Translations under genes and position numbers: made by a program
Source of the DNA: a virus
Lineage: Duplodnaviria; Heunggongvirae; Uroviricota; Caudoviricetes
Length of the DNA stretch: 10,588 bases
Strand: one strand, 5' to 3'
IMG/VR virus record: IMGVR_UViG_2690316175_000006
Part shown: piece after piece, positions 257 to 6,015 of the stretch
Position numbering within the stretch: position 1 is the first letter of the stretch
How the letters are laid out: each line of letters begins with the position of its first letter
The notes under the pieces: generated by a model
The model's input: only the letters and a program-made list of their open reading frames with translations
Told to the model about the DNA's origin: nothing
Database searches by the model: none

Positions 257-424
257 ATGACCACTATTACCAAAGAACGTATTGAATTGTTCATTAAAAA
301 CCCGCTTGAAAACGGGCTTACCCGTGGTGAACAAATGGAACTGGCACGGATTGCGCTGGCATCGCTGGAAGCAGAGCCGGTTGTGTTCTGGTTTGAAAAA
401 TATCAAGAAGGGGCTACGGCATGA
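257..424 (+). CDS. Hypothetical 55-aa protein, apparently chimeric
   Basis: ATG 6 nt after AGGAG; N-terminus MTTITKER...ALASLEAEP matches the 1540 gene, C-terminus [15 protein letters not shown] matches the 1433 ORF; stop overlaps next start (ATGA). Confidence 0.5.
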
Positions 425-765
425 CGACTTTTACCAGAGAGCAGTTAATAGCTCACGCAGAGGAGACTATTGAAGCACAGAGACTGTGCATACCGGGCAC
501 AATCGACCATGACATCATCCGCACATATAAGATGGATATTGCTGTTCTGGAAATCGCACTGGTATCGCTGGCAGCAGAGCCAGCCGGTAAATTGCATGAA
601 TACAAACCAGTGGGATATCAGCGTCTGGTCGATGAGTTAACCATGCTGGTAAAGCAGTTAACCTGGCAACTGAGGAAAGCGAAGCCAGACTGCAAATTAC
701 CGGATAAGGCGATGAGTTATCTGGAGCGGAACGGACTGATAAGCGTGGAGGATATTTTACGATGA
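421..765 (+). CDS. Hypothetical lambdoid-prophage accessory protein (114 aa)
   Basis: ATG-initiated ORF with ATGA overlaps to the genes on both sides; N-terminal motif shared with the 257 and 1540 ORFs. Confidence 0.6.
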
Positions 766-845
766 CCTGGCCTGAAGCATTAACAACGGTAGGAATTGCG
801 ATGGCGGTGGCGCTGGTGGTGTATTCGATTTGCCGCTGGGGATAA
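762..845 (+). CDS. 27-aa hydrophobic peptide with one predicted transmembrane helix ([27 protein letters not shown])
   Basis: ATGA overlap with upstream gene; near-identical copy at 2567-2650 with only a few nucleotide changes. Confidence 0.45.
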
Positions 846-898
846 AAACGGTTTGCGGGAAAAGGAGAGTTAAGTAGAATTGCAGCGGGTGCTTGAGG

Positions 899-935
899 CT
901 ATCTGTCTCAGGCATGAACACCAAAAGGCAGATAG
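899..935 (+). promoter_or_regulatory. hok leader stem-loop (10-bp stem, 17-nt loop), copy 1
   Basis: ctatctgtct pairs with aggcagatag (one G-U); the paralogous stem at 2868-2903 differs at two positions that both preserve pairing. Confidence 0.45.
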
Positions 936-999
936 AGAAAAGCCCCAGTTAACATTACGCGTCCGGCAAGACGCTTAACATTAATCTGAGGCTCAATCT

Positions 1000-1212
1000 A
1001 TGAACGGCAAATCTAGGTTAGCCTCTTACGTGCCGAAAGGCAAGGAGAAGCAGGCTATGAAGCAGCAAAAGGCGATGTTAATCGCCCTGATCGTCATCTG
1101 TTTAACCGTCATAGTGACGGCACTGGTAACGAGGAAAGACCTCTGCGAGGTACGAATTCGAACCGGCCAGACGGAGGTCGCTGTCTTCACAGCTTACGAA
1201 CCTGAGGAGTAA
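1000..1212 (+). CDS. mok: Mok-like leader ORF in frame with and containing hok (70 aa), copy 1
   Basis: Upstream in-frame ATG giving an N-terminally extended Hok, as recalled for chromosomal mok/hok loci. Confidence 0.45.
   Translation: MNGKSRLASYVPKGKEKQAMKQQKAMLIALIVICLTVIVTALVTRKDLCEVRIRTGQTEVAVFTAYEPEE
1057..1212 (+). CDS. hok: Hok/Gef-family type I toxin, 51 aa, HokD/RelF-like, copy 1
   Basis: MKQQKAMLIALIVICLTVIVTALVTRKDLCEVRIRTGQTEVAVFTAYEPEE: single TM helix plus conserved RKDLCEV...TEVAVFTAYE core; AGGAG 9 nt upstream. Confidence 0.85.
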   Translation: MKQQKAMLIALIVICLTVIVTALVTRKDLCEVRIRTGQTEVAVFTAYEPEE

Positions 1213-1280
1213 GAGACCAGGCGGGGGAGAAATCCCTCGCCACCTCTGATGGGTCAGGCATCCTCAATGCACCCACACTT

Positions 1281-1307
1281 AACCCGCTTCGGCGGGTTTT
1301 TGTTTTT
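1281..1307 (+). terminator. Rho-independent terminator of hok copy 1
   Basis: aacccgc-ttcg-gcgggtt hairpin followed by a T-run. Confidence 0.7.
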
Positions 1308-1320
1308 ATTTTCAACGCGT

Positions 1321-1350
1321 TTGAAGTTTTAGATGGTGCCGGAATAGAAT
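1321..1350 (+). promoter_or_regulatory. Candidate sigma70 promoter downstream of hok copy 1
   Basis: TTGAAG-18 nt-TAGAAT; the -35 lies within inverted half-sites TTCAA/TTGAA; identical copy at 3289-3318. Confidence 0.4.
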
Positions 1351-1432
1351 CAAAAATACTTAAGTAGCGCGCAGGGAGAAGAGGGATGGACCCCGAACAG
1401 GGGAGTGCTATTTATCTGGAAGGATTCTGTTG

Positions 1433-1543
1433 ATNCTTGCGTCCGGGAAAGGCAAAGCGCTGGTTCGTATGGGATTGGTTGAAATGAAATCTGACCCGGT
1501 TGTGTTCTGGTTTGAAAAATATCAAGAAGGGGCTACGGCATGA
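1433..1543 (+). CDS. 36-aa ORF, valid only if the ambiguous base at 1435 is G
   Basis: ATN after GGAAGG RBS; the paralogous position 3401-3403 is ATG; ends ...[15 protein letters not shown] with ATGA overlap to the 1540 gene. Confidence 0.3.
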   Translation, partial: XLASGKGKALVRMGLVEMKSDPVVFWFEKYQEGATA

Positions 1544-2205
1544 CCACTATTACCAAAGAGCGACTGCAATGGCTGGCTAACATTTCTGGCCGCGATGATA
1601 TTGACGATATAGACGGCGGTGAAATTCGTGAACTGGCGCTTATCGCTCTGGCATCACTGGAAGCAGAGCCTGTAGCGGAATGCATTGTTGAAGATGGGGG
1701 CATGTGTATTGACGGGTTCGGTGAGTATGTGGGTCACTCGCTGCCTGATGGAATGCATGAGCTTTATGCTGCCCCGCGAATGCGACAACCTGATGGATGG
1801 AAAGCCGTAGCTGTAGCGTGGAAGGTGACGTTTACTCAAGTTGACCAGGAATCTAATACGTTCACTGCTATATATTTTGACAAAGCGGAAGTTGAGTGTT
1901 GGGTACGACTGCATAAAGCATGTGATTTTCGGGCAGATATAACACCGCTTTACGCAGCGCCGGCAGTGCCGGTTGCAGTAAACGACGACATGGCTTACGC
2001 ATTCCATCACGCACTGTCAGATTCATCGCTTGGCTCTGATGAAATCGAAGAAATTAAAACCGGTTTGCGTGCTGCCTTTGCCAACGTCACTATCCAACCA
2101 GAGCCGATAGTGCCGGATGAAATCGGGCCAAACGATAGTAATACGTTTGATTATGTTGATGGCTGGAACGCCTGCCGCGCTGCCATGCTTAAGGGAGATA
2201 AATAA
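1540..2205 (+). CDS. Hypothetical lambdoid-prophage accessory protein (221 aa)
   Basis: ATG-initiated ORF, coupled at both ends (ATGA upstream, TAATG downstream). Confidence 0.65.
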   Translation: MTTITKERLQWLANISGRDDIDDIDGGEIRELALIALASLEAEPVAECIVEDGGMCIDGFGEYVGHSLPDGMHELYAAPRMRQPDGWKAVAVAWKVTFTQVDQESNTFTAIYFDKAEVECWVRLHKACDFRADITPLYAAPAVPVAVNDDMAYAFHHALSDSSLGSDEIEEIKTGLRAAFANVTIQPEPIVPDEIGPNDSNTFDYVDGWNACRAAMLKGDK

Positions 2206-2570
2206 TGATTAATCGAACCAAACTGGAGCACATTCTCGAATATGCCAGGCAGCAGAAATGTATTGGGCAACTTTGTAAAATTCCACCAGGAGATATGGTT
2301 GAAATCGTGGAAATGGCCATGCGTAAGGCTGGCAACTCTCCGGTAGCTCCGGCTGGCTGGATAAGCTGTAGTGATGCAGTTCCTGCTGAATATTGCGATG
2401 TGATTCTTCTCGATGATCTCGGGAATGTATTCCCCGGTTCCTGGGATAAGGTTTTTTGCCCCACTCGTGGCGGGAATAAGATGGCTTTTGTGGACAAAGA
2501 CGGCGTTGAAGTAGAGAGCTCAACTCACTGGATGCCGCTACCGGAACCACCGCAGGAGGTGAATCAATGA
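2205..2570 (+). CDS. Hypothetical phage protein (121 aa), DUF551-like
   Basis: GGGAG RBS; C-terminal ...STHWMPLPEPP resembles the DUF551 phage family from memory, not verified. Confidence 0.55.
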   Translation: MINRTKLEHILEYARQQKCIGQLCKIPPGDMVEIVEMAMRKAGNSPVAPAGWISCSDAVPAEYCDVILLDDLGNVFPGSWDKVFCPTRGGNKMAFVDKDGVEVESSTHWMPLPEPPQEVNQ

Positions 2571-2650
2571 CCTGGCCTGAGGCATTCACCACGGTAGGAA
2601 TTGCGATGGCGGTGGCGCTGGTGGTGTATTCGATTTGCCGTTGGGGTTAA
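2567..2650 (+). CDS. 27-aa hydrophobic peptide, second copy ([27 protein letters not shown])
   Basis: ATGA overlap with the upstream gene; paralog of 762-845. Confidence 0.45.
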   Translation: MTWPEAFTTVGIAMAVALVVYSICRWG

Positions 2651-2688: not shown

Positions 2689-2867
2689 AGGAAACAAAAC
2701 AGAAACAGCAATTGCCGTTACCTGTTGTTACCATGGCAAGTAAACGTATCTCAGGCGAGCGCATTGCGCCGTTCTGACGCAGATAAACTAGCCTGGATAG
2801 ATGGTGCTGGCAATAAAAAATAGCGTTTTCTTATCGGTGTCGGTAAGATTGCTGCGGGTGCTTGAGG

Positions 2868-2903
2868 CTGTCTGCCTCGGGTATGTCACTGTAAGGCAGA
2901 CAG
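2868..2903 (+). promoter_or_regulatory. hok leader stem-loop (perfect 10-bp stem), copy 2
   Basis: ctgtctgcct pairs with aggcagacag; covaries with the copy 1 stem. Confidence 0.45.
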
Positions 2904-2967
2904 AGAAAAGCCCCAGTTAACATTACGCGTCCTGCAAGACGCTTAACATTAATCTGAGGCCCAATCT

Positions 2968-3180
2968 ATGTCTCACAAATGTAGGTTAGCCTCTTACGTG
3001 CCGAAAGGCAAGGAGAAGCAGGCTATGAAGCAGCAAAAGGCGATGTTAATCGCCCTGATCGTCATCTGTTTAACCGTCATAGTGACGGCACTGGTAACGA
3101 GGAAAGACCTCTGCGAGGTACGAATTCGAACCGGCCAGACGGAGGTCGCTGTCTTCACAGCTTACGAACCTGAGGAGTAA
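2968..3180 (+). CDS. mok: Mok-like leader ORF in frame with hok (70 aa), copy 2
   Basis: Same architecture as 1000-1212; codons 2-5 differ (SHKC vs NGKS). Confidence 0.45.
   Translation: MSHKCRLASYVPKGKEKQAMKQQKAMLIALIVICLTVIVTALVTRKDLCEVRIRTGQTEVAVFTAYEPEE
3025..3180 (+). CDS. hok: Hok/Gef-family type I toxin, 51 aa, copy 2
   Basis: ORF identical to 1057-1212. Confidence 0.85.
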   Translation: MKQQKAMLIALIVICLTVIVTALVTRKDLCEVRIRTGQTEVAVFTAYEPEE

Positions 3181-4816: not shown

Positions 4817-5197
4817 ATGACCGAGCGCATAGAATTTGTTTTACCTTACCCGCCGACGGTGAACACTTACTGGCGTCGTCGTGGCAGCACATATTTTGTA
4901 TCAAAAGCCGGGGAGCGTTATCGCCGGGCAGTGGCGCTTATTGTTCGCCAGCAGCGGCTGAAATTAAGCCTGTCCGGAAGGTTGGCAATAAAAATTATTG
5001 CAGAACCACCGGATAAGCGCCGCCGTGACCTGGACAATATTCTGAAAGCGCCGCTGGATGCGCTGACGCATGCGGGGTTGCTAATGGACGATGAGCAGTT
5101 TGATGAAATCAATATCGTTCGTGGTCAGCCAGTATCTGGTGGACGTCTGGGGGTGAAGATTTATCCCATAATGCTTGAAGGGCAGGTCAAAAAATGA
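4817..5197 (+). CDS. rusA: Crossover junction endodeoxyribonuclease RusA (Holliday junction resolvase)
   Basis: 126 aa with YPPTVNTYW and PDKRRRDLDN motifs matching the RusA catalytic region; stop overlaps the next start (ATGA). Confidence 0.85.
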   Translation: MTERIEFVLPYPPTVNTYWRRRGSTYFVSKAGERYRRAVALIVRQQRLKLSLSGRLAIKIIAEPPDKRRRDLDNILKAPLDALTHAGLLMDDEQFDEINIVRGQPVSGGRLGVKIYPIMLEGQVKK

Positions 5198-6015
5198 AAC
5201 TGGAAGATTTACCGAAATACTACTCCCCAAAATCCCCCGGCCTGACTGATGCATCGGCCTCAACGTCGAAAGATGCGCTGAGTATCACTGATGTGATGGC
5301 CGCGCAGGGCATGACACAGAATCGGGCTGAGATGGGGGTTTCTGCGTTCCTTGGGAAAATGGGCATTAGTATGAATGACAGAGAGCGGGCAACAGAATTG
5401 CTGACAGAATATGCACTCAGTCGGTGTGATCGCGTGGCGGCGTTAAGAAAACTCCCGGCAGAAATAAAACCGGCAGTGATGCGTATTATGGCTTCGTATG
5501 CGTTTGAAGATTATGCCCGTAGCGCGGCGAGCAAAAAACAGTGCCCCTGCTGTCACGGAAAAAAATTTATTGAAAGCGAGGTTTTTACAAACAAGATCCA
5601 GTATCCGGATGGTAAGCCGCCGGTATGGGCAAAGTGTACGAAAGGTGTGTATCCGTCTTACTGGGAAGAATGGAAAAAAGTCAGGGAGGTGGTAAAAGTT
5701 GCCTGTCCGGAGTGTGGCGGAAAGGGTGAGGTTTCCACCGCCTGTAAGGATTGCCGTGGGCGTGGTGTCGCCATTCATCGTGAAGAGTCGGTAAAACGTG
5801 GTATGCCTGTTATCAGAGACTGCCAGCGTTGTGGTGGTCGTGGCTATGAAAGACTACCATCAACGGAGGCATTTAATGCTATATGCGAGGTGACAAACCA
5901 GATAACACGCGCGTCATGGGAAAAAACAGTTAAGAAATTTTATGATGCGCTGGTGACCCGGTTTGATATTGAAGAAGCATGGGCTGAGCGGCAGTTAAAA
6001 AAGGTAACTAGGTAA
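5194..6015 (+). CDS. Late-gene antiterminator Q-like protein (QuuQ-like) with four CxxCxGxG zinc-finger repeats
   Basis: Position directly after rusA and directly before a promoter-terminator pair; CPCCHGKK, CPECGGKG, CKDCRGRG, CQRCGGRG motifs. Confidence 0.55.
   Translation: MKLEDLPKYYSPKSPGLTDASASTSKDALSITDVMAAQGMTQNRAEMGVSAFLGKMGISMNDRERATELLTEYALSRCDRVAALRKLPAEIKPAVMRIMASYAFEDYARSAASKKQCPCCHGKKFIESEVFTNKIQYPDGKPPVWAKCTKGVYPSYWEEWKKVREVVKVACPECGGKGEVSTACKDCRGRGVAIHREESVKRGMPVIRDCQRCGGRGYERLPSTEAFNAICEVTNQITRASWEKTVKKFYDALVTRFDIEEAWAERQLKKVTR

Follow-up and report, generated by a model that had tools for sequence, protein, structure and literature searches.

Do two short, near-identical open reading frames (ORFs) in the early region of a prophage encode a protein that phages maintain, and what could such a protein do? 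The question is raised by a 10,588-nucleotide stretch of DNA from a member of the Caudoviricetes (IMG/VR virus record IMGVR_UViG_2690316175_000006), hereafter called the window. An earlier reading of its sequence, referred to below as the original prediction, had pointed to two 27-residue ORFs at 762-845 and 2567-2650, each overlapping the preceding gene as ATGA; both were found at these coordinates on the plus strand. The best overall explanation is that they are copies of a real, mobile coding gene for an inner-membrane peptide, with docking onto a partner as its proposed mode of action, and the probability of this reading is estimated at about 0.6. The comparisons indicate that each small ORF is a genuine protein-coding gene, carried in a mobile, gene-sized module and kept under purifying selection.

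Coding evidence and translation signals

The two copies differ at five of 84 bases, four of the changes being synonymous and the fifth replacing L7 by F. The direct repeat that holds the small ORF, as delimited by a repeat finder, measures 87 nucleotides (762-848 and 2567-2653, 93% identity). Its left limit is exactly the ATG, its right limit lies three nucleotides past the stop, and the flanking DNA is unrelated on both sides. As the repeat is confined to the small ORF, it is a discrete mosaic module of gene size and no part of a larger duplication.

A scan of IMG/VR with a degenerate pattern returned 120 loci, which together with the loci already collected gave 128 hits. These correspond to 34 peptide variants, almost all of 27 residues, and to 46 distinct 84-nucleotide sequences, in which third codon positions show twice the entropy of first and second positions. 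The search pattern constrained codons 1-11, and selection was scored on codons 12-27 alone. Over these codons, the ratio of non-synonymous to synonymous polymorphism (pN/pS) is 0.44 in the frame of the small ORF vs. 0.95 and 1.67 in the other two sense frames, which carry stops in 46 of 46 variants. Shuffling of the columns gave a mean ratio of 0.93, and three shuffles in 1000 were as low as 0.44.

A second sample was drawn independently of the ORF: loci were picked via the C-terminal module K-P-D-C-K-L-P..K-A-M of the gene preceding copy 1 (upstream gene 1, Table 1), and 119 of them could be evaluated. An intact, ATGA-coupled ORF of 27 codons is present in 107 (90%). The remaining 12 comprise one locus with a lost stop, five frameshifted or truncated copies, one GTG start and five loci in which the ORF is missing or deleted. 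Among the intact copies, 22 distinct substitutions are synonymous and 27 non-synonymous, where 27% synonymous changes are expected (p = 0.005); the shifted frames give 10:39. The frameshifts and stops in relatives that the original prediction held to speak against a gene are, hence, found at the level of decaying prophages (~5% frameshifted or truncated, ~4% without the ORF), and the gene is not refuted.

The start of the small ORF is equally constant. A core Shine-Dalgarno (SD) sequence stands at the proper distance in 35 of 35 unique upstream contexts, compared with 19% of control ATGs, and the overlap with the preceding gene is of the ATGA type in 97 of the 128 loci and a one-base overlap in 23. 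The upstream genes belong to 41 distinct full-length clusters, behind which start, frame and the length of 27 codons are all kept. Their unrelated C-termini (..QEVNQ, ..VEDILR, ..QEVNR, ..VEVK, ..LEVR) all encode GGAGG or GAGGT, which suggests that the ribosome-binding site (RBS) of the small ORF constrains the last residues of whichever gene precedes it. In 120 IMG/VR loci, the small ORF is preceded by the C-terminal module known from upstream gene 1 (KPDCKLP.KAM..EDxLR). An SD sequence within upstream codons, combined with a stop/start overlap (ATGA or TGATG), predicts translational coupling to the preceding gene.

The original prediction saw in the conservation behind otherwise different upstream genes a selected small membrane protein. 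This agrees with the kept frame, the SD sequences, the pN/pS ratio and the synonymous excess given above; with its own RBS and overlap, a maintained frame under selection and a predicted membrane-spanning helix, the small ORF has the features of a translationally coupled gene for a small membrane protein. The further claim that it closes each accessory operon applies to the window and cannot be generalized, as the small ORF is often internal: in many loci, the next gene begins 2-4 nucleotides past its stop. Genes coupled to it in this way include a 77-residue one (MGKITFVVEF..) in P1-like plasmids and an 80-residue one (MFALIQRGQIY..) before xis and int.

Distribution, predicted topology and wider family

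A total of 3105 occurrences of the 84-nucleotide sequence are spread over 1631 of 5426 complete Escherichia coli genomes, seven being the most in any one genome; by tblastn, the peptide was detected in 91 phage records and in 181 plasmids. The phages include 933W, where it lies directly before sokW/hokW, VT2-Sakai, VT1-Sakai, where it precedes the 80-residue gene, xis and int, and a phage filed under Vequintavirinae. The plasmids are mostly IncY P1-like phage-plasmids of ~95 kb from E. coli and Salmonella. At every locus examined, the small ORF is unannotated, starts with an ATGA or TGATG overlap and has 27 codons, despite diverged DNA; MNWPEAFTAVGVAIAVAFILYSLFRWG in VT1-Sakai and MSWPEAFTTVGIVMAAALGLYSICRWW in pSJ_98 are diverged examples of this length.

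As anticipated for an ORF below the length cutoffs of gene callers, the Prokaryotic Genome Annotation Pipeline (PGAP) left it uncalled in all matching genomes inspected. Exact peptides in NCBI carry just the names 'hypothetical', 'bacteriophage' or 'prophage' protein. Out-of-frame read-ins such as GGESMTWPEAF.. are mislabelled in GenBank as 'DUF551 domain-containing protein, partial', and these labels on fragments of the peptide are wrong: the peptide is read in a different frame and has no DUF551 match, the domain being residues 51-117 of the upstream protein. No mention of the peptide was found in the literature, including full-text searches for MTWPEA and WPEAF, exo-xis papers and Ea22 papers. 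About a third of complete E. coli genomes, thus, carry one or more copies of a gene that escapes PGAP and has no place in any curated family, with O157:H7 and other Shiga toxin (Stx) strains among the carriers. The gene occupies early operons of temperate phages, of the nin-like and exo-xis-like kinds; how the exo-xis and nin regions influence Stx-prophage induction and the lysis-lysogeny decision is being examined gene by gene, in studies that omit the small ORF.

One transmembrane helix had been predicted for each ORF, and hydropathy concurs: the mean Kyte-Doolittle value over residues 7-24 of both copies is 2.1-2.2, which is transmembrane-like. AlphaFold2, run on a 30-residue relative with the family alignment, gave one helix (residues 3-29) with a predicted local distance difference test (pLDDT) score of 92. 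The product is probably a single-pass inner-membrane peptide of 27 residues, its membrane location being a prediction. The acidic E5, the absence of an N-terminal basic residue and the R/K past the helix predict an N-out/C-in orientation, in which the acidic Trp/Pro cap at the N-terminus (M-x-W-P-E-A-F) would be periplasmic and the basic R25 cytoplasmic. The major coat protein of phage Pf3 similarly has a short acidic N-terminal tail, one hydrophobic helix and basic residues past it. This comparison also predicts an N-out/C-in topology, with insertion of the YidC type; it is an analogy of topology and not a homology, and unlike the Pf3 coat gene, the small ORF belongs neither to a filamentous phage nor to a virion gene cluster. 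Small-xxx-small stripes are the usual signature of tight helix-helix packing, and the small residues at positions 11/15 and 13/17 (G11/A15 and A13/A17) may form two such packing faces.

Six E. coli copies (P0093, P0096, P0097, P0109, P0110 and P0114) contain in-frame GCGATG or GCGGTG hexamer expansions in the helix (..IAMAMAMAMAVAL.., ..AVAVAL..), at the equivalent of window positions 795-812. The expansions add 2-8 residues to the transmembrane segment by a frame-preserving hexanucleotide slippage.

The family extends well beyond enteric phages. The same search pattern matched a Sphingobium jiangsuense prophage, in which a 27-residue peptide (MGWPEAFAAVGICACVAATLIVFARSL), coupled on both sides, lies just upstream of a YqaJ-type exonuclease and RecT, as well as a metagenome-assembled genome of Pseudobdellovibrionaceae. 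A pattern biased toward G/C at third codon positions, for which ~0.1 chance hits are expected in the viral collection, matched contigs of 51-71% GC, three viral and 11 metagenomic, with two contigs occurring in both sets. In thirteen of these 14 matches, the encoded peptide has 21-31 residues, opens with the same motif, contains a hydrophobic stretch and carries a basic residue close to its C-terminus; the remaining match (L139) encodes 50 residues with two hydrophobic segments. This ORF, on an IMG/VR contig of 71% GC, starts with MTWPEAFTTVG and spans 5175-5327 in the reverse-complement orientation (2245-2397 in plus coordinates). It follows tail-fibre-like genes and adjoins other membrane proteins, possibly a lysis-cassette context, unlike that of all other members.

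A profile search of 5.8 billion proteins, using an alignment headed by a 65-residue relative, yielded 107 entries, of which none is named for a function or contains an informative Pfam domain. Among 1.84 billion cluster representatives (50% identity), an exhaustive HMMER search recovered 189 clusters at E ≤ 1e-3, nearly all of 25-80 residues and matching at the N-terminus; this number is a lower bound, because most gene callers omit ORFs under 30 residues. The family consensus is M-x-W-P-[ED]-A-F-A-x-V-G-[VI]-A-F-A-x-A ... W-A ... [RK], and relatives of 21-35 residues share M-x-WPEAF-x-x-VG, the A-x-A-x-A stripe and the C-terminal basic residue. At positions unconstrained by the search pattern, small residues occupy 13, 15 and 17 in 79, 93 and 64% of cases, compared with 11, 21 and 4% at 12, 14 and 16. 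Two further features are likewise free of that constraint: of 28 divergent members, 25 have a K or R past the helix, and the first 11 positions hold no basic residue.

These relatives occur in early-gene arrays of phages from unrelated, GC-rich bacteria. In the contexts available, they lie inside long arrays of small genes with four-nucleotide overlaps, among exonucleases, a RuvC-like resolvase, a transcriptional regulator, Lar, a ProQ-like protein and RNase_T. The surroundings of the distant members are, thus, the same kind of early neighbourhood of accessory and DNA-metabolism genes as the lambdoid nin and exo-xis regions.

No curated family fits the peptide. Its best Pfam match is the DUF883_C glycine zipper (PF19029), at 14.5 bits vs. 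a cutoff of 27, and no Hok-family match was obtained; the best NCBIfam match is KdpF (TIGR02115; E = 0.12, 12.5 bits vs. a cutoff of 26.85). With PADLOC, nothing was returned at E ≤ 1 for the peptide or for the proteins at 421-765 and 2205-2570, and a fourth scanned protein (1540-2205) gave a chance-level match to JetA alone (E = 0.062, 9.9 bits). The sole PHROGs family to score the peptide is phrog_4612 (E = 0.011, 17 bits, profile positions 33-54 of 57). Membership cannot be claimed on so weak a score, the PHROG is itself unannotated, and divergent members match other weak PHROGs or none. The small ORF probably represents a sizeable new family of predicted small membrane proteins encoded by phages.

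Three known classes were also considered and rejected. Membership in the Hok/Gef toxins is contradicted by the position of the Rfam sok matches, which lie only at 887-1062 and 2856-3030, by the lack of a Pfam Hok match and by the length (27 vs. 51 residues). A type I toxin of another kind does not fit, as no Rfam family covers the ORF and a consensus SD sequence with a coupled start is present in all contexts; a small RNA of an undescribed kind may act on it. A holin or pinholin is not indicated either: replication or accessory genes flank the ORF on one side and the Q antiterminator on the other, and in a matching prophage, the holin and GH104 endolysin are found ~4 kb downstream.

Small proteins are known to be under-annotated, and the gene is in this sense unsurprising in kind. 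Its prevalence in prophages of pathogenic E. coli, its breadth and its motif make it a good experimental target, and its reach beyond enteric phages, together with the unusually sharp N-terminal motif, offers a tractable entry to phage micropeptides in the host membrane.

Proposed role and competing explanations

It is possible, although we would put it at somewhat under even odds, that the peptide docks on an inner-membrane protein, most likely one of the host, and modulates it early in lytic growth. In such a scheme, a nin-like or exo-xis-like early operon would express the small ORF coupled to the preceding gene. The peptide would insert in the inner membrane with its N-terminus out and its C-terminus in and would engage its partner by helix-helix packing. 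Candidate effects are a block to the entry of superinfecting DNA or an alteration of transport, division or the lysis-lysogeny decision; the peptide would be neither an enzyme nor a bulk membrane poison.

AcrZ, MgtS, KdpF and CydX are small regulatory inner-membrane proteins of E. coli, which act by packing against a larger membrane protein. The small ORF resembles them in having fewer than 50 residues, a single transmembrane helix (here predicted), a gene missed by gene callers and, often, operon coupling. It differs in that it has no sequence relationship to them, is phage-borne, has no conserved neighbour that could be the partner and possesses a family-specific WPEAF cap. Another comparison is with the small phage membrane proteins T4 Imm and HK97 gp15, which block superinfection: like them, the peptide is phage-encoded, predicted to be membrane-embedded and proposed to be directed at the host. 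Those proteins are larger, unrelated in sequence and encoded elsewhere in the genome.

More speculative, and rather unlikely, is a common target for all WPEAF peptides, by which the interfacial cap and the two-faced helix of small residues would address one universally conserved inner-membrane machine. Candidates are, for example, YidC/Sec, FtsH/HflKC, a divisome component or a DNA-entry channel of the phosphotransferase system (PTS/Man) type. If true, such targeting would constitute a generic early switch of phages for exclusion, division arrest or the lysis-lysogeny decision.

Several observations weigh against a selected gene with a docking product. Selection is moderate (omega ~0.45), and many of the sampled copies are close relatives, so that the counts do not represent independent events. 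The motif is not inviolable: W3R occurs in ~10 of the 107 intact copies of the ORF-independent sample (MTRPEAF.. variants). No partner gene is conserved beside the small ORF across taxa, and the target is consequently a guess. The alternating pattern of small residues would fit self-association into a pore equally well. No homologue was found in K-12 within Rac, e14, the fetched part of Qin and CPS-53 (DLP12 lay outside the search), and because these prophages lack the gene, ribosome profiling of K-12 is uninformative for it. The peptide is also absent from the supplements of the Sakai ribosome-profiling (Ribo-seq) paper and of 'The Cryptic Bacterial Microproteome'; the Sakai study applied a minimum of 30 residues, which excludes ORFs of 27 codons.

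The W3R copies of enteric origin could be either inactive alleles in decaying prophages or a tolerated variant.

We consider it unlikely that the peptide instead assembles into a small pore, or perturbs the inner membrane, in the manner of a viroporin, a pinholin or a type I toxin; the consequence proposed for such a pore, a proton-motive force lowered early in infection or the killing of the host, is judged unlikely to the same degree. In shortness and hydrophobicity, the peptide recalls DinQ, ShoB and TisB, and small residues on opposite faces of the helix (G11/A15 and A13/A17) are what packing against two neighbours in a ring would require. A hok gene often adjoins the small ORF (56 of 128 loci), and the 50-residue GC-rich relative has two hydrophobic segments and follows tail genes. 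Like the Hok/Gef toxins, which are its neighbours in the window, the peptide is a small, hydrophobic inner-membrane (predicted) product of a prophage. Hok, however, has 51 residues and a periplasmic C-terminal part, and it is controlled by mok, the Sok antisense RNA and mRNA folding, whereas the 27-codon ORF has an exposed SD sequence, a coupled start and no RNA family over it. A strong SD sequence and a coupled start, with neither antisense RNA nor translational block, are the opposite of what silenced toxic peptides display. Moreover, depolarisation would harm phage replication at the time an early operon is expressed, and up to seven copies per genome are tolerated. Nor is its position holin-like: no endolysin adjoins it, and the matching prophage has its lambda-family holin ~4 kb away. 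The exposed SD sequence and coupled start, the lack of any antisense control and the location in early operons disfavour a strongly toxic peptide.

Quite improbable is a role as a detachable membrane anchor or subunit of the upstream Ea22/DUF551-type protein, with coupling serving to match the amounts of the two. In enteric phages, the small ORF always follows, with a coupled start, a mosaic gene of the Ead/Ea22, DUF551 or phrog_660 type. Two cluster representatives are in-frame fusions to Ead/Ea22-like sequence (P0147, 206 residues; P0151, 143 residues), a weak hint in the same direction. The 41 clusters of upstream genes share, however, short C-terminal modules only, and outside the enteric phages the preceding gene is an exonuclease, a RuvC-like resolvase or an unrelated small ORF. 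Natural fusions were rejected as proof of a complex, being mostly plain frameshift accidents (L011, P0065) apart from the two Ea22 cases.

It is very improbable that the act of translation, and not the peptide, is what counts, with ribosomes shielding the operon end from Rho or RNases or setting downstream expression. The small ORF is often the last one before a terminator or a hok locus, as in the window, and enteric copies show almost no DNA variation in the 15 bases that follow the ATG. Against this, the motif and the helix pattern are kept with different codons across genomes of 51-71% GC, pN/pS is below 1 in the small-ORF frame, and the ORF is frequently internal, with a further gene coupled to its stop.

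Hardly credible, finally, is the absence of any sense gene, the 84 nucleotides being a recombination joint between mosaic modules (conserved junction sequences are known in lambdoid mosaics) or the antisense frame being the gene (minus-strand frames at 757-924 and 2586-2711; the wobble-sharing frame is open in 44 of 46 variants, with a pN/pS of 0.38): the open antisense frame and its low ratio are the expected by-product of a hydrophobic sense ORF sharing third positions, the antisense frames were rejected as real genes since each begins at a TTG codon of its own, in a spacer not homologous to the other, ATG, SD sequence, stop and length are all fixed in the sense frame, and conservation at the protein level persists where the DNA has diverged.

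Genomic setting of the two copies

The window corresponds to the early-right, nin-like region of an E. coli prophage that is lambdoid and resembles Stx phages. Its gene order comprises accessory genes of the Ea22/DUF551 type, hok, DUF968, RusA, a Q-type antiterminator, a DNA methyltransferase, tRNAs, IraM and a SASA esterase. The features around the small ORFs are listed in Table 1.

Table 1. Features surrounding the two small ORFs, in window coordinates.
Feature	Position	Strand	Remarks
Upstream gene 1	421-765	+	114 aa, no Pfam family; tail ..VEDILR carries the SD sequence of copy 1
SD sequence GGAGGA	747-752	+	9 nt before the ATG of copy 1
Small ORF, copy 1	762-845	+	27 codons; ATG overlaps the upstream stop as ATGA
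hok/sok regulatory region, unit 1	887-1062	+	Rfam sok (RF01794), 112 bits
mok, unit 1	1000-1212	+	70 aa; hok (51 aa) nested within at 1057-1212
Terminator-like hairpin, hok unit 1	1281-1298
Upstream gene 2	2205-2570	+	121 aa, DUF551 at residues 51-117; tail ..PEPPQEVNQ carries the SD sequence of copy 2
SD sequence GGAGG	2555-2559	+	7 nt before the ATG of copy 2
Small ORF, copy 2	2567-2650	+	27 codons; ATG overlaps the upstream stop as ATGA
Terminator-like hairpin	2655-2687	undefined	13-bp G+C-rich stem between an A run and a T run; 4 nt past the stop of copy 2
hok/sok regulatory region, unit 2	2856-3030	+	Rfam sok, 118 bits
mok, unit 2	2968-3180	+	hok at 3025-3180

The small ORFs had been described as sitting directly before the hok loci. 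In the window this is accurate, with gaps of 41 nucleotides (copy 1) and 205 nucleotides (copy 2) between the ORF and the sok match; across the 128 loci it fails, since hok lies within 1.5 kb downstream in just 44% and is absent from 56%. A functional tie between the small ORF and hok was rejected on these grounds. The first hok unit is annotated as Hok/Gef or HokD in matching genomes. The hairpin past copy 2 resembles a bidirectional intrinsic terminator, and none follows copy 1.

The tandem layout of the window, in which accessory genes, small ORF and hok are arranged twice in succession, may be a scaffold or assembly join or a rare rearrangement. The N at position 1435 marks the exact end of hok unit 1, where its match to hok unit 2 stops, and on its right an HNH-endonuclease gene is represented by its 3' fragment (ORF 1430-1543). 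This junction is spanned neither by any complete E. coli genome nor by the other loci fetched, matches beginning at 1436, and 17 other loci show a hok unit that runs on in the manner of copy 2. The possible join leaves both small ORFs unaffected. Further N positions in the window are a run at 7943-7989 and a single N at 9658.

The DNA encoding the DUF551 tail (..WMPLPEPPQEV; window 2535-2570) is reused in two other loci, L004 (933W L0139) and L012. There, a different reading frame (..LDAATRTAAGGE-M) makes it the 5' end of Ea22-like genes. This joint serves as the start region for different downstream modules and looks like a mosaic boundary sequence. Short direct repeats also link the accessory genes (257-424; 366-442 / 1485-1561; 338-381 / 541-584 / 1630-1673). 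They correspond to a shared 20-residue junction and a repeated 14-residue segment and illustrate domain shuffling among genes of the Ea22/phrog_60 type.

Downstream of the Q/methyltransferase region, the segments 7687-8075, 8152-8341 and 9621-9809 hold four tRNA genes and two copies of the STnc100 small RNA family, the latter scoring 124 and 82 bits. The tRNAs are Met-CAT, Arg-TCG and, twice, Arg-TCT. The first of them, Met-CAT, is annotated as Ile in a matching genome, which fits a lysidine-modified CAT anticodon.

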